Positions 47,748 to 64,000 of a stretch of 64,000 nucleotides of DNA are shown here, one piece after another (within the stretch, counting starts at the first letter, position 1; every line of letters begins with the position of its first letter). The notes beneath the pieces are model-generated. The model was not told where the DNA came from. It saw only the letters and a list, made by a program, of their open reading frames with translations, and searched no databases. Position numbers and translations under genes: made by a program. The DNA is from Candidatus Krumholzibacteriia bacterium (GTDB lineage: Bacteria; Krumholzibacteriota; Krumholzibacteriia; Krumholzibacteriales; Krumholzibacteriaceae). The stretch spans positions 1,065 through 65,064 of the forward strand of contig JAGLYV010000084.1 in NCBI GenBank assembly GCA_023131975.1. The letters are read 5' to 3'.

Positions 47748-50700
47748 GTGAAGATCGTGTGTGACGCAACGATAAGATTCCTGCATGCGGCTATTGCCGT
47801 ATCGGTGGTGTGCATCATGTCCGCGGCGCTGTTGAGCGGACCTGCACATGCACAGACATATACCAGATTACAGGTGCTTCTGCCCGGTGAAGTCGAGGCC
47901 CCCGGCACGCCTCAGGGCAAGGCGGGCTCTCCGGCGGCCCAGGCCGCGGGAGTACCCTTTACCGTCCGGATAAGGGCATGCGACGACCAGTGGAATACGG
48001 TTTCGATTACCCACGCGGTTTCCATAACCTGCTCTGATGAGAGCGCCACATATCCGGACCAGGCGACACTCAGCGGCGGCGAGGTTCAATTCAGTGCCAC
48101 GCTCAACGCCGGAGGGTCGTTCACATTTACTACGGGTGACCTCACAGATCCGACCGTCCCCGACGCAGTGTCCGCATCGGTCGATGTGATGGTGCTGCAG
48201 GGTTTCCTCTTCAACGACATCAGTCAGAAGCACTGCTACGCAGGCGTACCGGAGAACTATACGCTGACCGCGGTGGATGCCGGCGGCAATACGGTCACGG
48301 GTTTTACCGGCACCGTCAGACTCCGCCAGATCACCAGTTACGGAGAGGGGCGTATATCCCCGGAGCAGATCACTCTGACCGCTGGAACGTGGAGCGGACA
48401 GTTAACGATGTATCGTGCCGACGAGAGCAGCATCAACCGGGGCAACGTCAACATATACGCCTACCTTGAGGCGAACTCCGCGAAGAACGGGACGAGCGAT
48501 CCGTTTATCGTTCATCCCGGCTCGTTTTCCCAGCTGCAGATCGTAGTACCGGGGCAGGGTCCTCTGCCCGGGAGCGTCTCCGGCCTGACCGGTTCGCCCG
48601 CTACGCAGGCGGCCGGCACGGGATTCGTAGTCGACGTCTTCGCAACCGACCAGTACTGGAACCTTGTTCCCAGCGCTGACGTGGTGAGAATAGTTTCCAG
48701 CGATCCGGCCGCGAACACGCCCGTATCGGGACCGCTCACCGGTGGGCTCGGACAGTTTGCCGTGTCGCTCGGGACGGTCGGTGCGCAGACGCTCAGCGTG
48801 AGCGACCAGACAAACGGTTCGATATCGGGGATGACCAGCGAGCCGATCACCGTCATACCAAGCGCGCCGGACCATTTCGAGATCAGCGCGATATCCTCGC
48901 CAGTTACAGCCGGTGTACCGGTCAGCGTTACGATAACGGCCGCCGACATCGGTGGAAACACCATACCGGACTACCAGGGTGATGCGATCCTTGCCGCCAA
49001 TACGGGACCGGGAAGCATATCGCCCGAGGCGATCACTTTTTCCGGTGGTGAGTGGACCGGCGACATGGTCTTCAGGGGCGCCGGAGCGGCGGTCTCGTTC
49101 ACATGTTCCGACTACTCGACTCCCCCGAACACGGGTACGAGCGGGAATTTCCAGGTACTCCCCGGCCCGTTCGAGGGACTCCAGGTTCTGCTGGCGGGAC
49201 AAATGGCCCGCGGCGGCACCGTATCGGGGTACAGCGGTGAGCCGACTGCCCAGAACGCCGGTTCCCAGTTCACGATCAGGGTACGTGCCGTGGACTATTA
49301 CTGGAACCTTGTACCGGACGTAAACGACCGCGTCTCACTCGGATCGACCGATCTATTTGCCGATATGCCGGTCGAGACGACCCTGACCGGAGGAGAAATA
49401 TCCCTGCCCGTCACACTCTATTCGTGCGGGATGCAGACTATAAACACATCGGACCTCGACACGCCGGGCATCTCGCCTCACACGTCGAGGCCGGTCGAGA
49501 TAATCCCGGGATCGTACGCGAGGATACTACTACTCGCTCCGGGCGAGGAGCCCGCGCCGGGCACCGAGTCGGGAAGGACCGGGACAGCTACAGACCAGTC
49601 GATAAGCTATTCGTTCACCGTGACGGTCTATGCCACAGATCAGTGGTGGAACCCCGTGACCGGTGTGAGCGACGTCATACATCTGACGTCCAACGATCCG
49701 CTTGCCGAGCTTCCCGCCGACGCTCCGATGTCGAACGGGCGGGCCGACATGTCCATGAGGCTCTCCACGGGAGGGTACCAGCAGATCACTGCGTCGAACG
49801 TGACCCAACCGGTGATGCCGGTAAGCACGACCCAGGTCAGGGCGATCTCGAGCGGTTTTCATCTCGAGGCCGAACTGACGCCTCCGATGGTAAAGGCCGG
49901 GGAGGAGTTCCAGTTGACAGTGAAGGTCACCAACGACGCGGGGAGCGTCATCCAGGAGATAAACTCCATCGTCAACCTGACCGTGATGAACGCGTCGACA
50001 CAGGACCCCGGCAGGGGCGACCTTCTCGTGACGAGTTTTCAGCTGCTCCAGGGGCAGAGAATCGTCACCGAGACGTACACCTTTGTCGAACCGATAGTCA
50101 TAGTGGCGACCGACGACATGGGTAACGATCCGGCTGCTACCGGCGTCCTCGTCGTCAACCCGGGCGATCCCGATGCGGTCGATCTCTCGTGCAGCCCCTC
50201 GTGGGTCGGAGGAAACAAACACGCGGCGGTCAGCGCCGCAGTGGTAGACGCCTTCGGCAACGGTATTCCCGATCTGGAGGTCGTGTTCGACCTCATAGCG
50301 GGAGAGGGCGAGTTGACTCAGCTCGATACGTTGACCGGCGACGATGGCGTCGCAGAGGCGGACTTCTACAGTTCGCGTGTACCGGGGGTCAGCAGGGTAC
50401 GCGCAGAGTGTGGTCTTCTCATCGCCGAGCTCGACATCGAGACGGCGCTGGTAAACCCCAACCTGCCAGGCGGGACGATAACGAACTATCCGAACCCGTT
50501 CCATCCAGGAGAGGGTTCGACGACGATCGCATACAAACTTTCCGACAATGCCAATGTGAAGCTGGAGATCTACACGCTCAGCGGTACATTCGTGCTGCGC
50601 GAGGATTTCTCCGCAGGCTCGCAGGGTGGAATGTCGGGACTTAACGAATTCGCATGGGACGGCCGCAACGGAAACGGTGCATACGTCTCCAGCGGAGGCT

Positions 50701-50777
50701 ATATCGTACTTGTCGAGGCGGAGGGCCACGGCGAGACACTACATGTAATGCGCCGCAGAGTCGGCGTAGTGCGCTAA
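47748..50777 (+). CDS. large secreted Ig-like-repeat protein with T9SS C-terminal sorting domain (T9SS cargo)
   Basis: Signal peptide ending AHA|Q; many about 100-aa beta-rich repeats; C-terminal NYPNPFHPGEGSTTIAYKL...VKLEIYTLSGTFV...FAWDGRNGNG..VSSGGYIVLVEA matches the Por/T9SS type-A CTD. Confidence 0.75.
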   Translation: MKIVCDATIRFLHAAIAVSVVCIMSAALLSGPAHAQTYTRLQVLLPGEVEAPGTPQGKAGSPAAQAAGVPFTVRIRACDDQWNTVSITHAVSITCSDESATYPDQATLSGGEVQFSATLNAGGSFTFTTGDLTDPTVPDAVSASVDVMVLQGFLFNDISQKHCYAGVPENYTLTAVDAGGNTVTGFTGTVRLRQITSYGEGRISPEQITLTAGTWSGQLTMYRADESSINRGNVNIYAYLEANSAKNGTSDPFIVHPGSFSQLQIVVPGQGPLPGSVSGLTGSPATQAAGTGFVVDVFATDQYWNLVPSADVVRIVSSDPAANTPVSGPLTGGLGQFAVSLGTVGAQTLSVSDQTNGSISGMTSEPITVIPSAPDHFEISAISSPVTAGVPVSVTITAADIGGNTIPDYQGDAILAANTGPGSISPEAITFSGGEWTGDMVFRGAGAAVSFTCSDYSTPPNTGTSGNFQVLPGPFEGLQVLLAGQMARGGTVSGYSGEPTAQNAGSQFTIRVRAVDYYWNLVPDVNDRVSLGSTDLFADMPVETTLTGGEISLPVTLYSCGMQTINTSDLDTPGISPHTSRPVEIIPGSYARILLLAPGEEPAPGTESGRTGTATDQSISYSFTVTVYATDQWWNPVTGVSDVIHLTSNDPLAELPADAPMSNGRADMSMRLSTGGYQQITASNVTQPVMPVSTTQVRAISSGFHLEAELTPPMVKAGEEFQLTVKVTNDAGSVIQEINSIVNLTVMNASTQDPGRGDLLVTSFQLLQGQRIVTETYTFVEPIVIVATDDMGNDPAATGVLVVNPGDPDAVDLSCSPSWVGGNKHAAVSAAVVDAFGNGIPDLEVVFDLIAGEGELTQLDTLTGDDGVAEADFYSSRVPGVSRVRAECGLLIAELDIETALVNPNLPGGTITNYPNPFHPGEGSTTIAYKLSDNANVKLEIYTLSGTFVLREDFSAGSQGGMSGLNEFAWDGRNGNGAYVSSGGYIVLVEAEGHGETLHVMRRRVGVVR

Positions 50778-50791
50778 GGCGGGAGGAGCCC

Positions 50792-52072
50792 ATGAAACGC
50801 TTACATAAATACGTAAATACGAGGCGTGCGGCGTCCCTCGCTCTCGGTCTCTGCATTCTCGCAGTCACCGGGACAGGCGCCCTTGCCCAGGACGAACGGG
50901 GCGGCGCCCCTGGCGACTGGCTGTCAAATTACGCCACCGCGCGTACCGTCGGAATCGGCGGCGCGTTCGTCTCAGTCGCCAACGAGCCGGTGGGCGCGAT
51001 CTGGAACCCCGCCGCGCTTACCCAGGTATTCCAGAACGTGATCTTTGTAGAGACGACCCGTCTTTTCGAGGAGACGACGATCAACACATTCAGTTTCGGG
51101 ACTCCGGAGCGGTCGCTGCTCCCCGGATTCGGGTTGACCGTCATATCCCTCAGTTCGGGCGCATTTGAAAAGACGAACGAACTCAACGATGTGATCGGCG
51201 AGTTTGAGGAGGGCGAGACAGCCTTCCTGCTCTCCGCATCAAAGAGCATAAGCAGGCGTGTCGCGTTCGGTGCCAACCTCAAGGTCATACGACAGAGCAT
51301 CGACGAGTTCAGCGCCTCGGGCGCTGGTGCCGATTTCGGTGTCCTGTTCCACGCTATGCCATCGGTGACGATCGGGGCCTCGGTCCTGAACATCGGTGGT
51401 CCCGGACTGAAGCTGAGGGAGATCGAGGAGACTTATCCCGCTGATTACCGCGGCGGAGCGACCCTGCGATTTCTCGGCGGCCGGGCGATGCTGACTACCG
51501 AGATCGCTGGCAGGGCTGGCTATGGGGCCAAGCTCCACGCCGGCACAGAGTTTCAGGTCCACCCGATGCTGGCGCTGAGGATGGGCTACAACGACAGTTA
51601 TTTTTCCGGTGGCGCGAGTTTCGATCTCGCAGGCGGGATGAGGTTCGACTACGGCATGTCCGACCACTTGCTCGGCACGGTCCACCGGATCGGACTCTCC
51701 TACAGCTTCGGCGGTTTCTACGCCAGGGCGCAGGCAGATCCGCCGGTCTTTTCCCCGATAGGGGTGCAGTCGGTCACAAGGTTCGATCTCGAGGCGAGGA
51801 CAAAGGCCGACGCGGTCAGATGGAGTCTCGATATCGTCGATAAATCCGATCAGGTCGTTCGCAGGTTCAGAGGCGCGGGCAAGCCTCCCGCGCACGTCAT
51901 GTGGGACGGAAAGAACGAGAAAGGCATGCCTCTGGCCGACGGTGTCTACAGGTACCAGCTCGTGGTCATAGACGCTGAGGGCAGGGAGACCGATGGGAGG
52001 CAGCAGACTGTCGAGATCATGACGGCTGGCCCCCAGGGTAGCGTACCGATCATAGTAGGTAAGGAAAGCTAG
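50792..52072 (+). CDS. PorV/PorQ-family (FadL-like) outer-membrane beta-barrel protein with C-terminal FlgD-Ig-like domain
   Basis: Signal peptide ending ALA|Q; ARTVGIGGAFVSVANEPVGAIWNPAAL motif typical of the PorV/PorQ/FadL family; C-terminal WDGKNEKGMPLADGVYRYQLVV Ig-like module; start at ATG 50792 with SD GGGAGGAG. Confidence 0.5.
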   Translation: MKRLHKYVNTRRAASLALGLCILAVTGTGALAQDERGGAPGDWLSNYATARTVGIGGAFVSVANEPVGAIWNPAALTQVFQNVIFVETTRLFEETTINTFSFGTPERSLLPGFGLTVISLSSGAFEKTNELNDVIGEFEEGETAFLLSASKSISRRVAFGANLKVIRQSIDEFSASGAGADFGVLFHAMPSVTIGASVLNIGGPGLKLREIEETYPADYRGGATLRFLGGRAMLTTEIAGRAGYGAKLHAGTEFQVHPMLALRMGYNDSYFSGGASFDLAGGMRFDYGMSDHLLGTVHRIGLSYSFGGFYARAQADPPVFSPIGVQSVTRFDLEARTKADAVRWSLDIVDKSDQVVRRFRGAGKPPAHVMWDGKNEKGMPLADGVYRYQLVVIDAEGRETDGRQQTVEIMTAGPQGSVPIIVGKES

Positions 52073-52089
52073 GAAAGCCACCCGGGAGG

Positions 52090-55000
52090 GTGATAATCAT
52101 GATTCGTATGAGGCATATGATGATAAATACGGTGGTGATGGCCCTGGTGCTCTGCGCGATGCTCGTGCCTGGCTTCACCTCCGCCCGCTGCGAAGGTGGG
52201 GAGAAGGGCACACCGACCCTTACCGGCGCAGGCATGGCGCTCGAAAAAGCCAGACTGCTGCCGCACGAGGCGAAGAACAAGGCCCTTCACAGTGCCGCTG
52301 CCTCTGTCGCGTCGATCCTTGACGCCGGTCTTCCCAAGGAGAGGCAGAGCGCCGCGTGGTTCCTCTCGGCAGAGATAAATTTCGCCCTGGGGCATTACGA
52401 AGATGCAGTCAGGGAGTATGGAAAGGCCGGGGACAAGGACAGGGAGAAGATCTACCGGGACGATGCTGCCGCTGCCCATATAATGGCGCTCGAAGCGTCC
52501 GGAAAGGACGAAGAGGCGGCCAGGGCCTGGAAGAAATGGTTCGACAGGTATTACGACAGTCCCCTGGTTCCCGAGGCGATGCTGGCCTGCGCGTGGAACG
52601 CGCTGAGGCGCGGCGATATCTCTGGAGCCTCGAAGGAACTCGACGATCTGGAATCGCGACATCAATGGATGGAGAGTGACCGACGCACCGTACTGGCACG
52701 GTCGCTGATACGCTACGGGGGTGGGGATCACGCCGGGGCGTTCACCGCACTTGAATCGCTTGAAGATTCGCCGGAGGTCATTTACCTGCGGGCCCTCTGC
52801 CGCGAGGCGGCAGGGGAGACCCTCAGGGCCGCAGCTGGATACCAGGAAGTGAGCGAGCGGTGGCCGCACTCACCCCTGCGGGATTCAGCGATGATCGCGA
52901 AGGCCGACATCTTTCTTCACGCCAGAGCTTATACGAGCGCGGCGGAGGAGATGGCCCGCGTCGTCAGAGAATCGCGTCGTGGGGACATTCGGCGTGAGGC
53001 ATCACTGCGCCAGGCCGTCGCGGTATTTCTCGATGGCGGGACCGAACGCGCGGTCGAGCTTCTTAAAGAAGTGACCGTTGCCTGTGCCGGCACCGAGGTC
53101 GCTGCCCGGGCCCAGTTCCTTCTGGGCGAGTCGCTCTTCGGAACGGGCGCCTACCAGGAGGCGATAGTAGAGTTTAACGGAGTGCTGTCCGAGTACTTCG
53201 AACACGATCTGGCCGCCCGTGCCCAGTACAGGATCGGCCAGTCCCTCGACGCCCTCGGTCGAGGTGCCGAGGCGACGAGCTCCTATCAGGCTGCGGTGGC
53301 GGGGTATCCGCTTTCGCCAGAATCCCCGGCGGCGGCATACCTTGCCGGAGTCGGGCTTCTCGACATGGGCAGTCCCCTGGTCGCCGCGCCGTATTTCCAG
53401 CTGGTGATCGACAGGTATGCACGTTCGGACAGCTCGGGCATGTTTATCTTCGCGACCGACGAGCACCAGGAACTTGTTGAGGCCTCGCTCTGTCTTCTCG
53501 AGTATTCGTACCACCGTGCCGGCGACCTTGGACAGTTGTCCGGGGCTCCGCACCTGATGCTTCAGAGGATGCCTCCGAGCGATTCGCCGTGGCGCGCTTA
53601 CTCGGTGCTGATCGACGCCGACGCACTTGCCTCGCAGGCCCGATATGACGAGGCCGAGGCGATGCTTACCGGGCTGATAGAGAAATTTTCATCGCACGCG
53701 GCAGTTGTCCCCGCGAGCAGGCTGCTCGCCTGGACGTATGCGCGCCAGGGCAGGGACGAACTGGCAATGAAGACCGAGGAGAGGATGCTGGCGCGTTACG
53801 CCTCAAGTGGCGACGACGAGTACCTCGGCTCGGCTTATTTCAACAAGGCGAACATACTGTTCAACAGGAAGGAATACGGGGAAGCGGCCGAGTCTTACGA
53901 CGATTTTCTCAGGCGGTTCCCCGAGAACGATAAACATTTCCAGGCGCTGTACAGGGCAGGACTCTGCTACCAGCGGCTCGATCACAATGGCGACGCAGTC
54001 GACCGCTGGGAGGCGCTCGTTGCTGAGGACTCGACCAGTACGCTGGCCGAGAAGGCACTGGTACGCGCCGGCGACATGTATTTCCGGGCCGGCCACTACG
54101 AGGATGCCAGGCGCTGCTACGGCGCGCTTCTTCAGCGTTTCATCTCGAGCGACAAGGCTCCTCTGGCGATGCTCCGGCTCGCGCAGAGCGAATACAACTC
54201 GGGCGGAGACGAAGAGGCGCTGACCCTCTATTCAAAGGTCATAGAGCGTTTCCCCGACAGTTACGCGGAGCGTGAGGCGGAACGCGGGATAGAGCAGGCG
54301 CTCTACCGCCTCGGCCAGCGGGACGACGGGACCGAGGTCCTCGTCAGGCTCGTCGAGCAGCATGGGACGAGCCCATTCGCCGCCGATGCCCAGTTCGAGA
54401 TCGCCATGCGCAGTTACAAGGTCGAAGATTATGAGGAGTCGGCCGAACAGTTCAGGAGGGTGACGAGCCAGTTCCCCGCATATTCAGCTGCCGACAGGGC
54501 TCATTACCTGATGGCCGAGTCGTACCGCAAGGCGGGAAAGACGAGGGAATCGAGGCTCGCATGCGAGCAGTTCGTCAACTTCTTTCCTCATAGCGAGTTC
54601 AGGCCGACCGTCCATTTCCGCCTCGGTTCTCTTAGGTTCGAGGAAGGCAAGTATATGCAGGCCGCCGTGGATTTCACCGGCGTTCTCGACGAGGGAGCAC
54701 CAGACGAGATCATGGCTGCCGCGCTGTACAACCTTGCCCTCTGCAGGAGAATGCTCGGCGAGACCGCGGCCGCTACGGAGAACCTCGAGAAGTACCGCGA
54801 GACCTATCCGTCTGGCAACGGCCGTACTGCGGACGTCGCCTACCAGTTAGGAGACATCCACGAGGAGCAGGGCAGGCCGGAGAAAGCGATCAAGGAGTTC
54901 GAGCGTGCCCTCTCGGCAAAACCGCCAAAACCGATGTCGATAGAACTTCGCTACCACATAGGTGTGTGCAGGGAGGAACTGGGCGAGGACGCTGCCGCGA

Positions 55001-55212
55001 TCGCTGTCTACGAGAAGGCGATCAGTCGGGGCGGGAAGAACGACCCGTTCAGGCTTCTCGCGCTGGCCAGATGCGCCGGCCTCTACGAGGATAAAGAATC
55101 GTGGGACAGGGCGATAACAATATACAAGGATCTTATAAGGAATTCGCAGGACGAAGAGCTGGTGCTGGCCGCAGGCGAGCGTGTCGCCCAGCTCGAAGCC
55201 ATCGCCAGGTGA
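52090..55212 (+). CDS. large tetratricopeptide-repeat protein (secreted/periplasmic)
   Basis: N-terminal hydrophobic signal region, then about 1,000 aa of TPR-like helical repeats. Confidence 0.75.
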   Translation: MIIMIRMRHMMINTVVMALVLCAMLVPGFTSARCEGGEKGTPTLTGAGMALEKARLLPHEAKNKALHSAAASVASILDAGLPKERQSAAWFLSAEINFALGHYEDAVREYGKAGDKDREKIYRDDAAAAHIMALEASGKDEEAARAWKKWFDRYYDSPLVPEAMLACAWNALRRGDISGASKELDDLESRHQWMESDRRTVLARSLIRYGGGDHAGAFTALESLEDSPEVIYLRALCREAAGETLRAAAGYQEVSERWPHSPLRDSAMIAKADIFLHARAYTSAAEEMARVVRESRRGDIRREASLRQAVAVFLDGGTERAVELLKEVTVACAGTEVAARAQFLLGESLFGTGAYQEAIVEFNGVLSEYFEHDLAARAQYRIGQSLDALGRGAEATSSYQAAVAGYPLSPESPAAAYLAGVGLLDMGSPLVAAPYFQLVIDRYARSDSSGMFIFATDEHQELVEASLCLLEYSYHRAGDLGQLSGAPHLMLQRMPPSDSPWRAYSVLIDADALASQARYDEAEAMLTGLIEKFSSHAAVVPASRLLAWTYARQGRDELAMKTEERMLARYASSGDDEYLGSAYFNKANILFNRKEYGEAAESYDDFLRRFPENDKHFQALYRAGLCYQRLDHNGDAVDRWEALVAEDSTSTLAEKALVRAGDMYFRAGHYEDARRCYGALLQRFISSDKAPLAMLRLAQSEYNSGGDEEALTLYSKVIERFPDSYAEREAERGIEQALYRLGQRDDGTEVLVRLVEQHGTSPFAADAQFEIAMRSYKVEDYEESAEQFRRVTSQFPAYSAADRAHYLMAESYRKAGKTRESRLACEQFVNFFPHSEFRPTVHFRLGSLRFEEGKYMQAAVDFTGVLDEGAPDEIMAAALYNLALCRRMLGETAAATENLEKYRETYPSGNGRTADVAYQLGDIHEEQGRPEKAIKEFERALSAKPPKPMSIELRYHIGVCREELGEDAAAIAVYEKAISRGGKNDPFRLLALARCAGLYEDKESWDRAITIYKDLIRNSQDEELVLAAGERVAQLEAIAR

Positions 55213-55246
55213 CTCACCGGCGATCACGTAGAAGGAGAGTGTGAAG

Positions 55247-55969
55247 ATGAATGTAGATATCAACTGGCTGGGAGTCATAACCAGCAGCCCGATCTTCCTC
55301 GTACTCATAGGTATGAGCGTGGTTACGCTTGCGGTGGCCATCGAGAGGGTCTACTACTTCTCGAGGCGGAAGGACCGGGCTGACGAGACCCTCGACCGCG
55401 CAGTGCGAGAGATAAGACGCGGAGACCGCGACGAGGCGAGACGGATATGCCGATCGTGCAAGCATCCTGTCGGAGCCGTTGCCTGTTCGATCATCGACAG
55501 CGAGGGGCTTGATGGCGAGAAGGCCGAGGAACAGTTGCAGATTTCGCTGAGCCAGCAGAGTCTGTTGCTGGAGAATAATCTCGGGCTACTCGGAACAATG
55601 GCCGCCGTGGCCCCTCTTATCGGGCTACTTGGAACGGTATGGGGGATCATGCGGGCTTTCCGCGACATGTCGGCCATCGGGTCGGCCGCGCCTTCGATCG
55701 TGGCGGCCGGCGTCGCCGAGGCCCTGACCACAACGGCGGCGGGACTGATAATCGCCGTGCCCGCACTGATGTTGTACAACCACCTGACGAGGAAGATCCA
55801 CGTCATGCTGACGGTCGCCGAGAACAACACCCGTTCGCTCCGTCTTGAGCTGGAGAAGGCGCCGTCGAAAAAGGTCGGCGCGGACAACCGGGATAAGATC
55901 TACGGAGAGCCCGACAGCGCGGTCATTGGACGTATCGCCGAAGAACTGGAGACGGTAACTGCCGAATAA
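55247..55969 (+). CDS. exbB: MotA/TolQ/ExbB proton-channel family protein
   Basis: Three TM helices and the conserved C-terminal channel region; SD GAAGGAGAG; an alternative GTG at 55241. Confidence 0.8.
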   Translation: MNVDINWLGVITSSPIFLVLIGMSVVTLAVAIERVYYFSRRKDRADETLDRAVREIRRGDRDEARRICRSCKHPVGAVACSIIDSEGLDGEKAEEQLQISLSQQSLLLENNLGLLGTMAAVAPLIGLLGTVWGIMRAFRDMSAIGSAAPSIVAAGVAEALTTTAAGLIIAVPALMLYNHLTRKIHVMLTVAENNTRSLRLELEKAPSKKVGADNRDKIYGEPDSAVIGRIAEELETVTAE

Positions 55970-55979
55970 GGAGAATGCC

Positions 55980-56390
55980 ATGTTGTCGAGCAAATCGCCG
56001 AAAAGTAGCGGCGGAATACACGAGATAAATATGACGCCACTGATCGACGTCTCTCTCGTGCTGGTCGTCATGCTTCTCCTGCTCACTCCTCTCGCCTTCG
56101 AGTCGAGTATAGCGATACGCAAGGCCGCCGCCAGCGCGAAGGCTTCGGAGAAGAAACTGAAGGAGGAGCGCATCGAGTTGAGTGTCGTATCGGAGGACAG
56201 CCTCCTCGTGAACCGGGTCATGGTGCCGAGGCGCGGGTTGTCCGTGATGCTCGGGCCGATGCTCGAGGGAAGAACCGATCGCCGGGTCGTCATAGAATGT
56301 CGTAACGGGGTCACGCACGGGGTATTTGTAGACGTCCTTGACCAGGTAAAAATATGCGGGGCCGGCGAGATAGCCGTGCTGGGGAGGTAG
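55980..56390 (+). CDS. exbD: biopolymer transport protein ExbD/TolR
   Basis: INMTPLIDVSLVLVVMLLL single TM ExbD signature. Confidence 0.8.
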   Translation: MLSSKSPKSSGGIHEINMTPLIDVSLVLVVMLLLLTPLAFESSIAIRKAAASAKASEKKLKEERIELSVVSEDSLLVNRVMVPRRGLSVMLGPMLEGRTDRRVVIECRNGVTHGVFVDVLDQVKICGAGEIAVLGR

Positions 56391-56397
56391 AAGAGTC

Positions 56398-56826
56398 ATG
56401 AAACGAACGAGACGCGGCAGTAGAATGCCGCCTAGAGCGACGATAAACGTCACGCCGATAATAGATGTGGCGCTCGTACTCGTGATCATACTGCTGATTA
56501 CCGCGCCCATGCTGGCCCTGGCTGACATTGACGTCACCCTGCCGGCCGCGGTGTCGCGGGGGAGCGAAGATGATGTAAAAATCAATATCACGCTGAGCAA
56601 AGCGGGAGAACTGGCGATAAACGAGAATACAATCCGGAGAGGCGACTTTGGCTCGTTGCTACGGTCGCTGCTGTCGGATTCCGACAACAAGGATGTTCTC
56701 GTAGTGCTCCGCGCCGACATGGAAGTGCCATACTCGTCGATCAAGTCGATACTTGGCGAGGCGCGGGCCGCCGGAGCGAACAGACTGGCTATCGCGACAC
56801 TCCAGAAAGGCGGGTGCGGGAGATGA
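56398..56826 (+). CDS. exbD: biopolymer transport protein ExbD/TolR (second copy)
   Basis: INVTPIIDVALVLVIILLI signature. Confidence 0.8.
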   Translation: MKRTRRGSRMPPRATINVTPIIDVALVLVIILLITAPMLALADIDVTLPAAVSRGSEDDVKINITLSKAGELAINENTIRRGDFGSLLRSLLSDSDNKDVLVVLRADMEVPYSSIKSILGEARAAGANRLAIATLQKGGCGR

Positions 56827-57749
56827 ATGCTTACGCACTGAGCATCGAACTGGAGAAACAGCAGTCGAGGACGAGGAAGATCGCTGGTATCAGTCTGTTG
56901 ATACACGCCCTGCTTGCTCTACTCCTGTTGCTTCACCGGGCGATTGTGCCGGAGGCGATGGCCTTGACTGAGATAAGCTGGATAGAGCCCGAACCAGTCG
57001 TTCCCGTTGCGGCCGCTGCCGTAGTGAAGACGCGGCGCCCGGTCCGGCGGACTCTTCCGTTCCCGAAGCAGCAGGCCGAGCACTTCGTCAGAAAGACGGA
57101 GAAGAGCGATTTCGCGCCGCAGCCTCAGAGGGACAGGGCTGTCAAGGACCGTCTGGATCGCAAGTTTGCGTCGCTTGAGCAGACCACGCAGCGTGACCGC
57201 CCGAAGATAGCCTCGCTCGCGGCCTCGAACATATCACACAGGCCGGCGCTTGCTGCCGTGCCGGATAGAACGGAGAACAGGAGTGGGGCAATAGACCTGG
57301 AGCGCACCGACAGGCCCGTCGCGAGTCCCGTTCAACTGGCCAGGAGCGAGAAGCGCCCATCTACGGCTCCGATGAAACTCAGTACGATCCCGGAGAAGAC
57401 CGTCAAACCGGCGACCGTGGCGAGGGCCGATTCGACGGCGCGCAGAATGATAGACGGGATGAGTCTTGTCGGACCGGTCGCCGACAGGATGCTGGTAAAA
57501 TACGGCAGGCCCGGATATCCCGACTGGGCCAAGCGCGAGGGCATAGAGGGTTCTGTGGACCTGTACTTCATCGTCCTGCCCAGCGGCAGGGTGAAGGAGA
57601 ATGTACTCGTTCAGAAGACATCGGGGTTCGAGGATTTTGATAAAAACGCGATCGACGCTCTTCTTGCCTGGGAGTTCGAGCTGCTGGGAGGCGGCAGGAC
57701 CGGCGAGCAGTGGGGAGCGATCACCTTCGATTATCGGCTCAGTGATTGA
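56814..57749 (+). CDS. tonB: energy transducer TonB-family protein
   Basis: N-terminal TM anchor, Pro/Ala-rich linker, C-terminal TonB domain (YPDWAKREGIEGSVDLYFIVLPSGRV). Confidence 0.75.
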   Translation: MREMNAYALSIELEKQQSRTRKIAGISLLIHALLALLLLLHRAIVPEAMALTEISWIEPEPVVPVAAAAVVKTRRPVRRTLPFPKQQAEHFVRKTEKSDFAPQPQRDRAVKDRLDRKFASLEQTTQRDRPKIASLAASNISHRPALAAVPDRTENRSGAIDLERTDRPVASPVQLARSEKRPSTAPMKLSTIPEKTVKPATVARADSTARRMIDGMSLVGPVADRMLVKYGRPGYPDWAKREGIEGSVDLYFIVLPSGRVKENVLVQKTSGFEDFDKNAIDALLAWEFELLGGGRTGEQWGAITFDYRLSD

Positions 57750-57782
57750 TGGGCCGACGAAGAAACGAGGGAGTGGACCGAA

Positions 57783-58742
57783 ATGAGATACTTGAAGAAG
57801 AAGTTTGTCGTACTGTCGGCGTTCATCGCCACTTCGGCGGTCCTTCTTGCCGTTCCGGGCGCCGGGGTGGTGGGGGCCGAGCCGGACAGTGCCATGGTCA
57901 TCGAAGGTGGAAGCGAAGGAAAGGTCTTCAGAAAGATGACGATCGAGGGCGAGGACAGGTTCAGGATAGATTTCGAGCGCCCCGTCCTGCGGATCCACCT
58001 CGACCCCGCCGAAGCGTCGGGCCTCGACTGGGACAATACATGGGATGTGCTCGCCGAGGGCGATATCGACCTTCGTATTCCCCTCGCGGTGCTTTCTGCC
58101 GCCTGGTCTTCGCCGTACCTGCCGTGTCCCTGGCTCGACGAGTACGCGAGTGGGGAGATCGTGCGGTTTCAACCTTCGCTGACCGGTGTCGAGCGCTGGA
58201 AACTGATCATAGCCGATTCGAGAAGCGGAGAAGTCAGATCTTTCGATGGTAAAGGCAACCCTCCCGACAGGATCGGATGGGACGGTCTTTCGGAAGACGG
58301 AACGCCGATGCCGCCGGGGTATACTTATTCCTATGTCGTAGAAGCCTGGGACCGGGCGGGAAACAAGCGTAATTTTGTCGGTAAGGGGTTCAGCCTTCCC
58401 GCGTACCGGGTGACAACCGGCGAAGGGATGGTCTTTCTCTTTACCGGGGGTGAGCTGGATCTCCGCACCGCGTCGCGCGGTTCCGCCATCAGGACGCCGG
58501 TCTCCGTGCTGCTCGAGGCGGCGAGCAGGATCAACCAGGAAAGCGTATCGGACAGGAAGGTCCGGGTGGTGGTGACGGCGAGGACATACGATCAGGCCGG
58601 CGGAATGGCTGAGGAGGTCGTGCGGTCGCTGGCCACCCTGTTGATCGGCAGCCCGGCACGCATACAGCATGTCGCCGACGTCAGGGCCGATGCTCCCGAA
58701 GAGGGAACGGTCGTGGTCATTCTCGAGAAGCCGGAGAAGTAG
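57783..58742 (+). CDS. secreted hypothetical protein with FlgD-Ig-like module
   Basis: Signal peptide; WDGLSEDGTPMPPGYTYSYVVEAWDRAGN Ig-like motif; no other recognisable domain. Confidence 0.5.
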   Translation: MRYLKKKFVVLSAFIATSAVLLAVPGAGVVGAEPDSAMVIEGGSEGKVFRKMTIEGEDRFRIDFERPVLRIHLDPAEASGLDWDNTWDVLAEGDIDLRIPLAVLSAAWSSPYLPCPWLDEYASGEIVRFQPSLTGVERWKLIIADSRSGEVRSFDGKGNPPDRIGWDGLSEDGTPMPPGYTYSYVVEAWDRAGNKRNFVGKGFSLPAYRVTTGEGMVFLFTGGELDLRTASRGSAIRTPVSVLLEAASRINQESVSDRKVRVVVTARTYDQAGGMAEEVVRSLATLLIGSPARIQHVADVRADAPEEGTVVVILEKPEK

Positions 58743-58821
58743 ATACAGGCCCCGTTCACGGGTCGGAGAGCGGAGAGTCTTCCGAGTCGTTTGTTTCAAC
58801 GGGATGATATTCATTGACAAA

Positions 58822-58848
58822 GGGCCGTCTCGAGAGATCGGCCCTTTT
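58822..58848 (+). terminator. rho-independent terminator closing the tonB cluster
   Basis: GGGCCG-TCTCGAGAGAT-CGGCCC followed by TTTT. Confidence 0.6.
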
Positions 58849-59306
58849 ACAACAATGCTCATTAATATTGAGCCAAACATGGATACATATGTACCCGGGG
58901 AAGCGCAAGCCCTTCCTTGTCGCCGCTCTACCGTAGCAAAAACGCTACTATACAGGGCCTGTACCGTAGCACTTTTGCTGCGGTATCCGATCGTGCGGGT
59001 GAGAGGCCTGGTTGAAGAAAGCGGCAAACACCGTTGTTACTCGAAGACCGCGTTCGCAAATGCAGCATTATGCTGACTTATCACGAACCGACTGCAAGGA
59101 TTCTTGCCGCCAACGGTGGTGGTAACTTTATTTGACACTTCACATTAAGTCAAAAGTAAGTAGTGAAAAAACGCTATTGTTGTGTTACAATCCTCCTTCC
59201 AGGAATCTAGGGGACCACATCAAGGGCATACAATCGGATTCTTAGAATGAAATGTTTGAATGTTATAAAGCTTCAGGTAGGCTAATTGTATGTTAGGCAT
59301 TTAGTT

Positions 59307-59945
59307 ATGGAAAATCTAGTAATACGAAAAGTGAAGGCATTAGATGGTCTGCATTATTCATTCGGGCTTATTGACCATTATTATGAGGAGTTATATCCAC
59401 TATGTTCTAAAATCAACACTGATAATAAGAAGGTTATCCCTACACTAGCAAGATGCTGGGGATTTGTGGATGCTCTCCACCGCGCCAGAGAGATCTCCCA
59501 AGCAATTCCTGGTCTTGGAGGCAAGAATCCTCACCTCAAATCTTTTCTGAAATCAACTGTTCTCGCGAAAGAATATCGTCATTATATTCAACACTTACGA
59601 AGAGAACTCAACAAGCAGCCTACAAATACTTTCCCAGTATGGGGTGTATTGTCTTGGATAGATGAATACGATGAAACGAAGAGCCACACAGCCTGGATTG
59701 GAGCAAGATTACCCGGAACAACTTATTCGGGGCATGTTTTCGACACAGTTAACAAAAAATGGGTATCCCGTGTAAGTCTCAGCATTGCTGAAAAGAGTTT
59801 TAATTTTGATCCTATTTATGAAGCAGTCCAACAATTTGAAGCCTTTGTTATTCCTTGGATTATTGAGAAAGCTGGAATAAAGATTAAGGTAACAAACGAA
59901 CTTCCCATTATAAGTATGAAGGCTGTTATAAATAAGGATTCCTAG
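59307..59945 (+). CDS. hypothetical protein (low-GC orphan, no recognisable domain)
   Basis: ORF about 212 aa; about 38% GC versus about 58% in flanking core genes; start uncertain (the track ORF begins at TTG 59286). Confidence 0.45.
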   Translation: MENLVIRKVKALDGLHYSFGLIDHYYEELYPLCSKINTDNKKVIPTLARCWGFVDALHRAREISQAIPGLGGKNPHLKSFLKSTVLAKEYRHYIQHLRRELNKQPTNTFPVWGVLSWIDEYDETKSHTAWIGARLPGTTYSGHVFDTVNKKWVSRVSLSIAEKSFNFDPIYEAVQQFEAFVIPWIIEKAGIKIKVTNELPIISMKAVINKDS

Positions 59946-59954
59946 CTGTCGATT

Positions 59955-60040
59955 GCAACCGTCGGAGTCTTGCCTGTTACGTTGGCTTCGGGGTAGCAGT
60001 CGCGCCAGGAAAGCCCGCGGCTGAATCGAAGATTGTTGGT
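59955..60040 (+). repeat. copy A of an ~86-bp conserved intergenic leader element
   Basis: About 75% identical to 62730-62816; shares the core ...GCAGTCGCGCCA(A)GG...TGAA.CGAAG.TTGTT.GGT. Confidence 0.5.
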
Positions 60041-60084
60041 AGCACTATCACCGCACGGTTGTTATCTAGAGGGGGGTTGGTACC

Positions 60085-61056
60085 ATGAGCGATTTTGGAG
60101 ATCTCGAACGGGTTGACCTTAGAGAGGCATGGGCGAATGAAGCTACCCAATTCACTCCGTGGGTCGCTGAGAACCTTGCTCTCCTTGGTGATGCGATCGG
60201 AATCTCTCTTGAGCTCGAGCAGACGGAAAAGCCCGTGGGGAGCTTTTCTGCAGACGTGCTTTGCAGGGACACCCTCACCTCGCGTCCGGTGCTGATCGAG
60301 AATCAGATCGAACGGACTGATCACACGCATTTGGGGCAGACGATTACCTACGCTGCTGGTATCGGCGCCTCGACGGTTGTATGGGTCGCTGCGCAATTCC
60401 GTGAAGAACATCGGGCTGCGCTTGACTGGCTGAACGAACACACTGACGAGGATCTAGCCTTCTTTGGACTTGAGATAGAGGTGTGGCGGATTGGTGCCTC
60501 GGCAATGGCACCGAAGTTTAACGTTGTGTGCAAGCCGAATGACTGGGCACGGCAGGTTCACGCCGCAGCGATAAACCCCGCTGCTTTCACGGAAACACAG
60601 AGTGCGCAGGTTGAGTTCTGGACAAAGTTCGTCGAGTTTACACATCAAAGGCAAAGCCCTCTCCGCTCGGGAACGCCCGGACCCTACAACTGGGTTGGTC
60701 ATCCTGTGGGGCGGAGTGGCTTCGTCCTCAACTCGGTCTGGTCTACGTACAACTCGGCGACAAATTCTTTCTGCGGCGAGATTCGGGAAGATCTTGTGCT
60801 CTCCACAACCAGTGCGAAGGAGAACTATGCAAGGCTTCTTGAGCGGAAGGATGAGGTCGAGACAGCCTTGCGTGAGCATGGTGTGACGGAGGAGATTCAC
60901 TGGTACAATCCAGAGAACGCACAGTTGTGCAGGGTGTATGTGCGGAGAGATGCCAATATCGAGAACCGCGACGACTGGGCGAATCAGGAGCGCTGGCTGC
61001 TTGACCGTGCCGAAGCTTTCCTAGCGGTCTTCGGTCCCGTCATTCGCAAACTTTGA
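60085..61056 (+). CDS. hypothetical protein, probable PD-(D/E)xK-like nuclease N-terminal domain with DUF4268-like C-terminal domain
   Basis: N-terminal SADVLC...VLIENQ...Y pattern compatible with a restriction-endonuclease-like fold; overall family assignment from memory, not verified; SD GAGGGGGG; GC about 55%. Confidence 0.55.
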   Translation: MSDFGDLERVDLREAWANEATQFTPWVAENLALLGDAIGISLELEQTEKPVGSFSADVLCRDTLTSRPVLIENQIERTDHTHLGQTITYAAGIGASTVVWVAAQFREEHRAALDWLNEHTDEDLAFFGLEIEVWRIGASAMAPKFNVVCKPNDWARQVHAAAINPAAFTETQSAQVEFWTKFVEFTHQRQSPLRSGTPGPYNWVGHPVGRSGFVLNSVWSTYNSATNSFCGEIREDLVLSTTSAKENYARLLERKDEVETALREHGVTEEIHWYNPENAQLCRVYVRRDANIENRDDWANQERWLLDRAEAFLAVFGPVIRKL

Positions 61057-61150
61057 GGCTGGCAGGGGAAGGTTCTAGCCCCGGCATCCAGCGGACTACG
61101 CTATGCTAGCCGCGAGGTACTACACTGAAGAAGCAAAAAAGGAAAAATCC

Positions 61151-61636
61151 ATGTACCAGGCAGGAACAACACTGAAGTTAAATTTTGGTTCATACTTTCA
61201 TTATGGAATAGCTGATGGAAATGGAAATGTCATTCATAATTCAAAGAAACGTGGAATGGTTACATCTGAGCCAGAGGCGGATTTTGCAGAAGGAGAAGTA
61301 ATACAAGTCAGCGATATTACCAGTGATAACCCGAACTTAGCAGTAATGATGGCAGAACGCTATTTAGGCATGCCCTATAACCTGATAAAAAGCAATTGTG
61401 AGCATTTTGTTCGTCTTGCACATGGGCTGGAAATTGAAAGTACGCAAATTCAACAGTACTTATTGATAGTTTTAGGAGCAGGGGCAGCCATTAAAAGTGA
61501 TGATGTGTTTGTTAAGTCAATTGGAGGAGCAGTTGTCTTGGCATCATTGCTCACCCCATCAGAAGAATGTCCTTTTAAGAATGCTACAATAGCCGGTCTT
61601 ATTGCGGCTGGTTTGGTGGTTTTTGCAAGAAACTAA
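61151..61636 (+). CDS. LRAT/PLAAT (H-rev107)-like NlpC/P60-superfamily acyltransferase/phospholipase with C-terminal membrane anchor
   Basis: YFHYGIADGNGNVIH (His-box, compare PLAAT YRHWAIYVGDGYVVH) and SNCEHFV catalytic Cys motif (compare NCEHFV); C-terminal hydrophobic helix; low GC about 40%; the track ORF starts at 61103 but the ATG at 61151 is preceded by an A/G-rich SD. Confidence 0.75.
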   Translation: MYQAGTTLKLNFGSYFHYGIADGNGNVIHNSKKRGMVTSEPEADFAEGEVIQVSDITSDNPNLAVMMAERYLGMPYNLIKSNCEHFVRLAHGLEIESTQIQQYLLIVLGAGAAIKSDDVFVKSIGGAVVLASLLTPSEECPFKNATIAGLIAAGLVVFARN

Positions 61637-61689
61637 AGCTTCAAACAATTCAAATGCACACAGATTTAGAAATGTGAGGACAATAGAAA

Positions 61690-62724
61690 GTGATTGAGCA
61701 ATCTTGGATTCAAGAAATACTTCGAACGAAAACTGATGGCCGTCTTTACCATCGTGAAGGTCAGGAGCTTGAATTTAAGGAACAGTTTAACTTAGCTGGA
61801 TTAGCTGAATACTTTCGTGACTTCGCAGCTTTTGCAAATAACAGGGGTGGGTACCTAGTATTTGGAGTAACGGATAAACCAAGGCGTCCGGCAGGTTTGT
61901 CAAGTAGAGCGCTTGAACAATTTGAGAAAATAGATCCAGAAAAGATTAGTGGGTTCTTACTAAAGTTGTTCTCACGATCTATTGACTGGGAGCAGTCTTC
62001 TCATGAAATTGGCGATACTTCATTTGGTGTAATACGAGTTTATGAAGCTCGTGAAAAACCTGTTATTGCAAAGATGGATGAAGGAAAGCAACAAATAATA
62101 AAAAATGGTGAAGTATATTATCGTTACGCAGGTAGAACCCAGAAAATTCAGTCTGCTGAATTGGAAAGTATTATAAATAGACGGGTTCAGCAAAATAATA
62201 AGCAGTGGCTCGACCTAGTCCAAAAAATCGGAGTCGCGGGACCAAATAACGCTGCAATTCTTGACACAGAACGTTCTATTATTGAAAAGGATGAGGCAAA
62301 GATTCTTGTTATTGACAACGAACTTGCAAAAAAGATGAGTTTTATCAAAGAGGGTCAATTCAAAGAAAAATATGGCACTCCTACTCTCAAACTAGTTGGT
62401 GATGTTGTTCCTGTTGATAGAGTAGAAGTTGTCAAACGTGTTCGCGAGAATTTAGTAAAAGCATATCCATATTCTGCGGCTGAACTTGCGCAGGCAGTTG
62501 AAGTTATTGTACCAAGTGCAAAAAGGAATAAGATATGGGAAACTATACGTGATAACGATTTAAAGAATAATGTTGATTATTCAGCTTTCAACTTTCGGAA
62601 CAAAAAACAGGAAGACAACTACAAAGAAACAGGAATACTTGCTTTAAATACACCATCGATCTACAATCAAAAAGCTGTAGATTATCTTGTAAATGTCCTA
62701 AGGACAGAAAATGGAGACGTCTGA
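61690..62724 (+). CDS. Schlafen-like AlbA_2 domain protein (putative nucleic-acid-binding regulator/sensor)
   Basis: EGQELEFKEQF...FANNRGGYLVFGVTD matches the AlbA_2 (divergent AAA/Schlafen) signature; C-terminal ~200 aa unassigned; GTG start; low GC about 38%. Confidence 0.65.
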   Translation: MIEQSWIQEILRTKTDGRLYHREGQELEFKEQFNLAGLAEYFRDFAAFANNRGGYLVFGVTDKPRRPAGLSSRALEQFEKIDPEKISGFLLKLFSRSIDWEQSSHEIGDTSFGVIRVYEAREKPVIAKMDEGKQQIIKNGEVYYRYAGRTQKIQSAELESIINRRVQQNNKQWLDLVQKIGVAGPNNAAILDTERSIIEKDEAKILVIDNELAKKMSFIKEGQFKEKYGTPTLKLVGDVVPVDRVEVVKRVRENLVKAYPYSAAELAQAVEVIVPSAKRNKIWETIRDNDLKNNVDYSAFNFRNKKQEDNYKETGILALNTPSIYNQKAVDYLVNVLRTENGDV

Positions 62725-62729
62725 CACTT

Positions 62730-62816
62730 GCAGCCGTAGGAGCCTTCCCTATCACGTCGGTCGTAAGGCAGCAGTCGCGCCAAGGTCGTTCGCAGTTGAA
62801 GCGAAGGTTGTTCGGT
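62730..62816 (+). repeat. copy B of the ~86-bp conserved intergenic leader element
   Basis: See copy A; lies 40 bp upstream of the type IIG gene start. Confidence 0.5.
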
Positions 62817-62855
62817 CTTGGAAAAATTAAAGTCAATTCTAAGAGGGATACATCT

Positions 62856-64000
62856 ATGCCAGCTCCGGAATCAGTAAAGAAGTTAATTGAAACATTCGGC
62901 AACAATATAGATTTCTATAAATCCGACCAATACAAGGAAGATCAACTACGGCAGGAATTCCTGAACCCGTTCTTCAAGGCGTTGGGTTGGGATATGGACA
63001 ACACCGCCGGGCTGGCGCCGCAATACCGCGATGTTATCCATGAAGTATCCATTAAGATCGGTAGCTCCACCAAGGCGCCAGACTACGCCTTTTCCATCCA
63101 CGGACAATATAAGTTTTTTCTCGAAGCCAAAAAGCCTGCCGTCAATGTGCAGAAAGATTTTGACCCGGCCTACCAGCTCCGACGCTATGGTTGGTCAGCT
63201 AAACTGCCCATCTCGATCCTGACCGACTTCGAGGAATTTGCAATATACGACTGTCGTAAGCGTCCTAAGCGTGGAGAGCGTGCATCCACATCACGGCTCG
63301 CCTATTTTAAGTACACCGACTATATTGAGAAGTGGGATGAACTTAGCGCAACCTTCTCCAAGGACGCCATCCTCAATGGCTCGTTCGACAAATATACGGT
63401 CGATGCCAAGCGCCATCGTGGATCTGATACTGTTGACGACGCCTTCCTGAAGGAAATCGAAAACTGGCGAATCCTGCTGGCGCGCAATTTTGCCCTGCGC
63501 AATCCAACATTGTCCGTCCGCGATCTCAACTTTGCCGTCCAGAAAACCATTGACCGCCTCATCTTTCTGCGCATCTGCGAAGACCGCGGCACAGAGGACT
63601 ACAAGCGGCTGGCCACATTGCTCAGCAGCGGGCGCATATATCCTCGTCTGCTCGACCTGTTCAAACAGGCGGATACGCGCTACAACTCTGGCCTATTCCA
63701 CTTTTCCGCCGAACGCAGGCGCGGCGCGCCCGATAACGTTACGCCGAAGCTGGAACTTGATGATCGAGTACTCAAGGAGATTATTTCCAAACTCTATTAT
63801 CCTGAATCGCCCTACGAATTTTCTGTTTTGCCTGCTGACATCCTCGGCCAAGTCTACGAGCAGTTTCTCGGCAAGACTATCCGTCTCACCTCTGGGCACC
63901 AGGCAAAGATCGAGGAAAAGCCCGAGGTCCGCAAGGCTGGTGGTGTTTACTATACGCCAAGCTATATCGTTGACTATATTGTGAAGAATACTTTAGGTAG
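62856..64000 (+). CDS. type IIG restriction-modification enzyme (HsdR_N-like N-terminal domain + N6-adenine methyltransferase), 3' end beyond window
   Basis: Open frame to window end (not in ORF track because no stop); N-terminal EDQLRQEFLNPFFKALGWD type-I-R N-terminal-like motif; GVYYTPSYIVDYIV methyltransferase motif near residue 370. Confidence 0.75.
   Translation, partial: MPAPESVKKLIETFGNNIDFYKSDQYKEDQLRQEFLNPFFKALGWDMDNTAGLAPQYRDVIHEVSIKIGSSTKAPDYAFSIHGQYKFFLEAKKPAVNVQKDFDPAYQLRRYGWSAKLPISILTDFEEFAIYDCRKRPKRGERASTSRLAYFKYTDYIEKWDELSATFSKDAILNGSFDKYTVDAKRHRGSDTVDDAFLKEIENWRILLARNFALRNPTLSVRDLNFAVQKTIDRLIFLRICEDRGTEDYKRLATLLSSGRIYPRLLDLFKQADTRYNSGLFHFSAERRRGAPDNVTPKLELDDRVLKEIISKLYYPESPYEFSVLPADILGQVYEQFLGKTIRLTSGHQAKIEEKPEVRKAGGVYYTPSYIVDYIVKNTLG

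Follow-up and report, generated by a model that had tools for sequence, protein, structure and literature searches.

A probable integron-type gene cassette array without an adjacent integrase in a Krumholzibacteria genome

Integron gene cassettes that lie apart from an integrase gene are classed by IntegronFinder as clusters of attC sites that lack an integron-integrase (CALIN), a class defined by two or more attC sites that share a strand, are separated by less than 4 kb and have no intI nearby (PMC4889954). The routes described to such clusters are loss of intI, a rearrangement that splits an integron, and IntI-mediated insertion of cassettes at genomic sites (PMC4889954; 10.1101/2022.09.11.507474), and integron cassettes are rich in anti-phage systems (10.1101/2024.07.02.601686; 10.1101/2024.07.02.601719). 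Some insertion sequences (IS) go to attC sites: ISKpn4, ISPst6 and ISPa25 are IS1111 members that target one attC end through a seekRNA, and IS1111 elements have a long non-coding region downstream of tnp, which encodes the transposase, and subterminal inverted repeats (PMC11187229). No publication on integrons in Krumholzibacteria was found in the literature searched. Here we describe the last 5 kb of a 64,000-nt stretch of contig JAGLYV010000084.1 (positions 1,065 to 65,064, assembly GCA_023131975.1; the whole stretch is called the window), from a metagenome-assembled genome (MAG) of a Candidatus Krumholzibacteriia bacterium, together with its continuation on a contig of the same species. 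We hold, at a probability of about 85%, that this region is an integron-type gene cassette array without an adjacent integrase; it is called a CALIN because no integrase adjoins it, and as such it adds a new host lineage to an already known kind of element.

All coordinates are those of the whole window. Positions beyond its end are window-equivalents obtained by adding 51689 to the coordinate on L001, the contig of the same species (NCBI GCA_030629965.1), which matches the window at 99.85% identity and prolongs the array by about 7.7 kb, so that the island does run past the window end as a reading of the sequence alone (the sequence-only reading) had proposed. The gene order around the AlbA_2 protein of the array is identical on the three public contigs on which that protein is present. 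One variant, L002, is 0.9% diverged and has the same architecture; L001 and L002 diverge most in the distal cassettes (L001 15000-19800), where the gene lengths are 408 and 401, 385 and 400, and 286 and 272 aa, respectively.

attC sites and the cassettes they delimit

A 92-nt direct repeat lies at 59946-60037 and 62721-62812, with 71% identity between the copies; the first begins where orf1 stops, at its stop codon, and the second at that of the AlbA_2 gene. A profile of the repeat copies gave matches confined to the island, and the hypothesis that the repeat is a repetitive extragenic palindromic (REP) sequence was rejected on that ground. When the two window copies were folded as single strands the folds were no better than those of shuffled sequences, an Rfam scan of 58.5-64 kb gave no match, and a simple attC finder (AAC...GTT plus fold energy) was unspecific and was dropped. 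Since single-copy folds were uninformative, the case for attC had to be made from homologues. These were reached through the IS110-family transposase encoded at the far end of the array, homologues of which are abundant in metagenomes; in the contigs that were fetched, the copies adjoin a relative of the 92-nt repeat 5' of tnp. In these other metagenome contigs the layout of the family, when read along the strand of the adjoining genes, is (R)YCTAAC, 5 nt, CTT-G-CAGCTG, a variable stem, CAGCTG-AAG, 6 nt and GTTAGGC; the longer of the contigs hold many small same-strand open reading frames (ORFs) in classical cassette arrays, among them a PIN/MazE pair, an HNH protein and methyltransferases. 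The attC of the class 1 integron cassette aac(6')-Ib has the same geometry: GCCTAAC, 5 nt, CAT-C-GAGGGG ... CCCCTC-ATG, 6 nt and GTTAGCC.

Thirteen aligned attC sites, none of them from the island, were made into a covariance model, R1. The structure that RNAalifold recovered from the 13 sites has an R box, spacers that stay unpaired, two bulged bases in the L box and, at its end, a variable stem. In this alignment 92.4% of the cells were paired and 12 pairs had compensatory changes, a level reached by none of 500 shuffles, while slid controls were 24-42% paired. On other loci R1 found further sites in arrays, on the gene strand, whereas control loci outside arrays, about 37 kb in total, gave no match. 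An exact-pattern scan of genome contigs returned one true relative, and exact-pattern scans of metagenome and viral sequences gave no match to the attC 3' half. The relative is a lone 3' attC half (…GCAGCAGTCGCGCCAGGAAAGTGCGCGGCTGAATCGAAGATTGTTAGAA) at 3972-4026 of locus L006 in MAG AUK263 (JAGHBT010000236.1), an unrelated MAG of 46% GC, where it lies between two convergent ordinary genes; R1 has no match there, and the half-site resembles an isolated cassette scar or one attC site on its own without an integrase (SALIN).

When R1 was run with filters off over the window and L001 (85 kb, both strands), there were five matches, all on the + strand and all in the island, and the next best had an E-value of 0.67. 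Site 1 (59938-60043, +) was matched over the full length of the model with 54.2 bits (E 7e-14); in its layout an R''-like TCCTAGC overlaps the orf1 stop codon, and after 5 nt come L'' (ATT-G-CAACCG), L' (CGGCTG-AAT) and finally R' (GTTGGTA). Site 2 (62713-62815, +) scored 28.9 bits (E 5.8e-6) and overlaps the AlbA_2 stop codon. The other three, also on the + strand, lie beyond the window end at 67932-67996 (L001 16243-16307; E 1.7e-3), 69211-69283 (L001 17522-17594; E 1e-3) and L001 19769-19832 (E 3e-4), the last belonging to a site which is split by an IS and ends at 71521. The island sites are 64-106 nt long and align full-length to R1 as imperfect palindromes within the 57-141 nt expected of attC. 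The AAC of R'' is kept at the sites behind the FRG gene (CTCTAAC) and the DUF4365 gene (ACATAAC), neither of which is an exact RYYYAAC; R' begins with GT(T) at every island site and its RRRY part is often imperfect.

The sites divide the array into five blocks, in the order orf1 with site 1; the DUF4268, LRAT and AlbA_2 genes with site 2; the type IIG restriction-modification (RM) gene, a 181-aa ORF and the DUF4365 gene with the site at 67932-67996; the gene for a 385-aa SIR2-like protein with the site at 69211-69283; and the FRG gene with the split site. Sites 1 and 2, as detected with R1, share a strand and lie 2.8 kb apart with no intI nearby, as in a CALIN. In a complete integron intI stands beside the first cassette, with an attI site and a Pc promoter upstream of that cassette, and the genes found upstream here are a tonB cluster. 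The sequence-only reading had offered no mechanism of insertion for the region and had treated it as a generic island. Its failure to find an integrase is upheld, and the generic view gives way to gene blocks separated by attC sites. The blocks hold one to three + strand genes and are each closed by an attC, which would fold single-stranded and be recombined by IntI, and cassettes of differing origin and GC would thereby be stacked head to tail in one orientation. The mosaic GC, the shared strand and the lack of a tRNA or a phage-type integrase would then all follow from cassettes stacked one way. The array would have been assembled by an IntI that acted in trans or has since been lost, several of its attC sites may now be decayed and immobile, and its genes may function in defence. 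This provides a testable mechanism for a compositional mosaic that otherwise resembles an unexplained defence island.

An independent view of one cassette comes from the LRAT-like gene. Its homologue in the Gammaproteobacteria MAG contig WLWT01000003.1 (locus L035), 72% identical, is a single-gene cassette with transposase genes adjoining, and R1 matches canonical attC sites on both sides of it (L035 5921-5984 and 6490-6564). Since the gene is thus found as an attC-flanked cassette in a Gammaproteobacteria MAG, it travels as a cassette across phyla. A conserved two-gene system made of the LRAT and AlbA_2 genes was considered and rejected, as LRAT homologues elsewhere are solitary or have other neighbours. 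The multi-gene blocks are probably fused cassettes with decayed attC sites, because the GC at third codon positions (GC3) drops from 0.61 to 0.30 where the DUF4268 gene gives way to the LRAT gene (61057-61150, +) and because the LRAT homologue is a single-gene cassette; this junction itself is probably a decayed cassette boundary.

An IS1111 element in the last attC site

The IS that splits the last attC lies at about L001 18437-19783. Its transposase matches the NCBIfam model NF033542, IS110 family RNA-guided transposase (E 2.8e-92), and has the domains PF01548 and PF02371 (DEDD), and its gene is on the strand opposite to the cassettes; it is frameshifted in L001 and intact in L002. The R'' CTCTAAC of the split attC overlaps the FRG stop codon and the remaining attC follows the IS. 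The element has about 240 nt of non-coding sequence downstream of tnp and about 76 nt upstream, and its subterminal inverted repeats, GGACTTCTCC and GGAGGAGTCC, are 10 bp long with one mismatch.

When 72,556 plasmids were searched, the best relative of the transposase was that of ISPa25, which is 46.8% identical. This copy of ISPa25 lies behind the blaOXA-17 cassette in a class 1 integron that is carried by the P. aeruginosa plasmid pHPA0698-3 (NZ_CP137509.1), and its tnp is opposite to the cassettes. The junctions of the island IS read CTCTAAC TCTCG|TATCTGGACTTCTCC ... GGAGGAGTCCATTCCATCA|ATTGCAG and those of ISPa25 read GGCTAAC AAGTCG|TATATGGACTCCTCC ... GGAGGAGTCCATTCCATCA|CTCAAGG, so the two are near-identical. 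All of the 15 further homologous IS copies with a preserved flank adjoin YCTAAC plus 4-5 nt, and taking the island copy, these 15 homologues and ISPa25 together, one end reads YCTAAC plus 4-6 nt followed by TAT(C/A)TGGAC. At the other end ...CCATTCCATCA is followed by L'' in the copies read there, which are the island copy, seven homologues and ISPa25. The island IS is thus like the ISPa25/ISKpn4/ISPst6 group in its DEDD transposase, its downstream non-coding region, its subterminal repeats and its insertion 5-6 nt past the AAC of R''. It is like ISPa25 also in having its transposase opposite to the cassettes and in sitting in the last attC of an array; it is unlike ISPa25 in that the identity of the transposases is only 46.8%. 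The nearest relatives of the transposase, 72-88% identical, are all on environmental metagenome contigs. With this element the integron-type cassette arrays and the attC-targeting IS1111 group are both extended to an uncultured phylum.

The non-coding region (L001 18437-18676) holds CAGTCGTATCTTCGG, where ISPa25 has CATTCGTATATTCGG, and each matches its own junction (TCG|TATCT and TCG|TATAT, respectively). Likewise a segment of it reads TCGTATCT in the island IS where ISPa25 has TCGTATAT. This segment fits a predicted seekRNA guide that would co-vary with the IS end. Part of the same region, L001 18480-18582, looked like a further repeat, as if repeats flanked the IS gene itself, and gave rise to the candidate of a novel IS110-based cassette system. 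That candidate was rejected, as the nhmmer matches came from the segment's own inclusion in the profile; the independent model R1 has no match in it, and the segment is the non-coding (guide RNA) region of the IS.

Weighing the origin of the array

Several observations weigh against the region being an integron-type cassette array. No integron integrase and no recognisable attI were found in the 59 kb upstream or in the flank present on L001, which is about 1 kb of a tetratricopeptide repeat (TPR) gene. The sites themselves are imperfect: site 2 is conserved in sequence, about one third of the R1 model pairs are broken in it, and it is probably decayed; the boxes are degenerate at site 1 (TCCTAGC/GTTGGTA) and at the DUF4365 site (GTAGAAG), and site 2 has no clear R''. 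The extrahelical base of the coding strand is G in this family and C in the class 1 aac(6')-Ib attC; the first bulged L'' base is G in 12 of the 13 seed sites and in the island sites (59955 and 62730), which could reflect a different integrase specificity. Model-supported sites are spaced 1.3-5.2 kb apart, above what is typical of cassettes, and the gap of 5.1 kb between sites 2 and 3 breaks the 4-kb rule of IntegronFinder, by which the array would be split in two. There is no model-supported attC at the DUF4268/LRAT, LRAT/AlbA_2 and 181-aa/DUF4365 boundaries; weak attC-like remnants can be seen by eye behind the 181-aa gene, between the DUF4268 and LRAT genes and at 59005-59050, and R1 supports none of them. 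The detection of sites rests on the self-built R1, from 13 related sites, and not on the model of IntegronFinder. Lastly, a 73-nt palindromic repeat around the array is not explained by integron biology. It is because the pairs of site 2 are broken and several R boxes are degenerate that much of the array is probably immobile now.

This 73-nt element, D2, was found in a repeat search on L001 and consists of two GTAGC-type hairpins. The left copy is at 58919-58991 and its partner at L001 19961-20033 (71650-71722), so that the pair brackets the entire 12.7-kb array; the copies are 92% identical in L001, or 89% when the window copy is used. Over their central 50 nt or so they differ at a single base, most of the differences lying towards the edges. 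D2 may be an att-like sequence that was duplicated when the whole block integrated, or an old REP-like pair of palindromes with the array between them. If the 12.7-kb block came as one integrative unit, the D2 copies would be its attL and attR, or anchors of a homologous replacement, and the array would be cargo built elsewhere. This is compatible with the cassette reading, as it concerns only how the array arrived at the locus, and we regard it as possible, on balance doubtful. The 92%-identical copies bracket exactly the block of odd composition, their centre is near-identical, no other copy of D2 lies in the 64-kb window, and the genes on either side are ordinary, the TPR gene downstream being core-like (GC 0.545, GC3 0.633). 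Against this, the block holds no integrase or excisionase, and its sole recombinase is the IS1111 transposase, the ends and target of which are unrelated to D2. D2 is also absent from the orthologous intergenic regions of relatives, a scan of JGI metagenomes with 20-mers of D2 gave only a 24-nt partial match, and two old tandem palindromes of the REP kind, or of the related BIME (bacterial interspersed mosaic element) kind, with an insertion between them would look identical. It is less probable still that the array moves whole between D2 sites by way of some recombinase and that the attC family serves a divergent clade of integrases in Krumholzibacteria and their neighbours that tolerates multi-gene defence cassettes of several kb; such a scheme we consider improbable.

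An ordinary defence island, put together from unrelated insertions and without any integron, would require the 92-nt repeats to be REP-like or regulatory sequences that are favoured targets of IS110-family elements. Some IS1111 members do target REP sequences (PMC11187229), no Rfam family matches the repeat, no integrase is in view and some of the R boxes are non-canonical. However, the repeats are confined to the island, begin at stop codons and are always in the orientation of the genes; they agree exactly with a class 1 attC in their 7 / 5 / L'' / L' / 6 / 7 geometry and are homologous to canonical CTAAC/GTTAG sites inside classical cassette arrays, and the IS belongs to the group that targets attC and not to that which targets REP sequences. 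We therefore consider this explanation very unlikely. That the mosaic is an artefact of assembly, in the form of a chimeric metagenomic contig, is hardly credible. The source is indeed a MAG, there are sharp steps in GC from one gene to the next, and the tonB cluster too is off the core composition; yet the junctions recur in a MAG contig from NCBI, an ENA scaffold and a Logan contig besides the window, the variant that is 0.9% diverged has an intact IS and not a frameshifted one, and the GC switches at 59.95 and 62.75 kb fall on attC sites (the switch at about 61.1 kb is without one).

The integron-type cassette array is thus the reading that we prefer, and it is like published integron cassette arrays in its same-strand cassettes with attC sites, in mixed genes with related attC sites, in a cargo enriched in defence genes (RM and single-gene systems), in lacking an integrase nearby and in being associated with an IS. 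Published defence cassettes are described as streamlined, whereas the blocks here are larger, 1-5 kb with up to three genes and including a full 987-aa IIG enzyme. Also unlike in published arrays, several attC sites are probably decayed, a 73-nt direct repeat brackets the array and the host is an uncultured member of the Krumholzibacteria. With generic defence islands the region shares the clustering of RM, PDC-S11, PDC-S15, SIR2-like and nuclease-like genes; it differs from them in that the clustering here would have an identifiable cause, which is the stacking of cassettes through attC sites.

Array genes, base composition and flanks

Five + strand ORFs make up the array inside the window, and the sequence-only reading had likewise given five genes on one strand: 59286-59945 (start 59307), 60085-61056, 61103-61636 (start 61151), 61690-62724 and 62856 to the window end. 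The first, orf1 (59307-59945, 212 aa), had been taken for an orphan; a search for homologues gave 519 clusters at E<=1e-3, and the family, which is uncharacterised, has an R-x4-H motif that is conserved. In an alignment of 50 members W51, D55, Q95, H96, G113 and W117 are invariant and R91 is near-invariant, which gives the motif. AlphaFold2 with the 50-homologue alignment gave a pLDDT of 96.8, compared to 40 for the single sequence, and when this model was searched against the PDB by Foldseek nothing significant was found. That orf1 may be a HEPN-like RNase is a reasonable guess and not a result. The DUF4268 protein (60085-61056, +) is the PADLOC candidate single-gene defence system PDC-S11 (E 1.5e-109). 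The LRAT or NlpC-P60-like protein (61151-61636, +; Pfam LRAT, E 1e-9) has a papain fold and a hydrophobic C-terminal tail, and its start codon was put at 61151 because its homologues have 161 aa. It is followed by a Schlafen/AlbA_2-domain protein (61690-62724, +; Pfam SLFN_AlbA_2, E 2e-17). The window ends within the type IIG RM gene (62856-64000, +), which encodes 987 aa and continues to 65819; the N-terminal 381 aa are in the window, and the enzyme has an HSDR_N nuclease, N6_Mtase/Eco57I and TaqI_C domains. Its match to REase_MTase_IIG has an E-value of 4e-118 among the window ORFs and of 7e-191 among the PADLOC matches of the whole array. The domain calls made earlier from the sequence (DUF4268/nuclease-like, PLAAT-like, AlbA_2 and type IIG RM) are all confirmed by these Pfam and PADLOC matches.

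Past the window end L001 carries the rest of the IIG enzyme, the 181-aa ORF, the genes for the DUF4365, 385-aa and FRG proteins, the IS110-family transposase gene and the TPR gene. The DUF4365 protein is nuclease-like and matches a model of restriction endonucleases associated with prokaryotic Argonautes, the 385-aa protein has weak similarity to SIR2, and the FRG protein is PDC-S15. The PADLOC matches in the array are PDC-S11 (1.5e-109), REase_MTase_IIG (as above), PDC-S15 (1e-33), an Aga_REase-like protein (3e-19) and a weak SIR2 (1e-5), where the PDC systems are candidate and not validated defence systems; there was no PADLOC match for orf1 or for the LRAT, AlbA_2 and 181-aa proteins. Judged by these gene families, the cargo would be mostly anti-phage: PDC-S11, the LRAT-like and AlbA_2 proteins, the IIG RM enzyme with the 181-aa protein, DUF4365, the SIR2-like protein, FRG/PDC-S15 and possibly a HEPN-like orf1. 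A cargo so heavy in defence fits the known pattern, in which anti-phage systems abound among integron cassettes, and because of that enrichment the orf1, LRAT-like, AlbA_2 and 181-aa proteins are candidate anti-phage genes.

The earlier proposal of an accessory region with many defence genes agrees with these PADLOC matches and with the absence of the genes in relatives. In three relatives, the orthologues of the flanking 319-aa protein (which the source record assigns to Candidatus Krumholzibacteria) are 65-72% identical, and the genes downstream, which differ from one relative to the next, are unrelated ones for an LVIVD protein, a Por_Secre_tail protein and an amidohydrolase. The island genes are missing from all three, whereas their presence at the same locus in relatives, with core-like composition, had been named beforehand as the finding that would count against an island. 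On the contig with a further orthologue, which is 78% identical, the sequence ends 232 nt past the gene and shows only that D2 is absent there. Because synteny downstream is not conserved, no exact empty site can be defined.

The change in sequence character after the terminator, noticed in the sequence-only reading, is borne out. A terminator-like hairpin followed by T's (AAAGGGCCG...CGGCCCTTTT; 58814-58852, +), found as an inverted repeat, closes the tonB cluster and is the left edge of the normal flank. In a 400-nt sliding window GC falls from about 0.60 at 48-58.8 kb to 0.39-0.46 at 58.85-59.9 kb, and it then steps to 0.56 (60.0-61.1 kb), 0.37-0.40 (61.2-62.8 kb) and 0.47-0.55 up to the window end. 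The GC and GC3 of the genes are 0.39 and 0.33 for orf1, 0.557 and 0.61 for the DUF4268 gene, 0.40 and 0.30 for the LRAT-like gene, 0.38 and 0.27 for the AlbA_2 gene, and 0.48 and 0.53 for the complete type IIG RM gene. These gene-by-gene jumps support the mosaic of low and high GC that had been described, and the baseline needs correction, as the core GC is about 0.53 instead of 0.60: 14 housekeeping genes in window 1-47 kb have a GC of 0.528 +/- 0.016 and a GC3 of 0.637. The island genes described as high in GC are therefore core-like in GC. It is the FlgD_ig / TPR / ExbB-ExbD-ExbD-TonB cluster (47748-58742; GC 0.60, GC3 0.73), entered by a step at about 47.2-47.7 kb, that is the high-GC outlier, because core genes have a GC of about 0.53. 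The spacer between the terminator and orf1 had been called AT-rich; 58853-59285 has a GC of 0.46 and holds the left D2 copy. A possible 3' remnant of an attC or attI (GGTTGAAG...CCGTTGTTAC; 59005-59050, +) seen there by eye is the remnant mentioned above, and a sigma70-like site is at 59163-59191, such sites being no commoner in the region than in shuffled sequence.

As had been noted from the sequence, there is neither an integrase nor a tRNA in the window: ARAGORN found no tRNA in the 64 kb, and Pfam found no tyrosine recombinase or Phage_integrase domain among 20 window ORFs of 275-1009 aa. The gene table of L001, which reaches about 8.7 kb past the window end, has no integrase. The array is flanked by ordinary genes, namely the tonB/TPR cluster upstream and the TPR gene downstream. 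The first 47 kb of the window are housekeeping genes (rpoN, hprK, metK, ahcY, lptF/G, truB, ribF and an aminoacyl-tRNA synthetase among the 20 ORFs searched with Pfam), and amid them is a + strand ORF of 2274 aa at 19410-26234.

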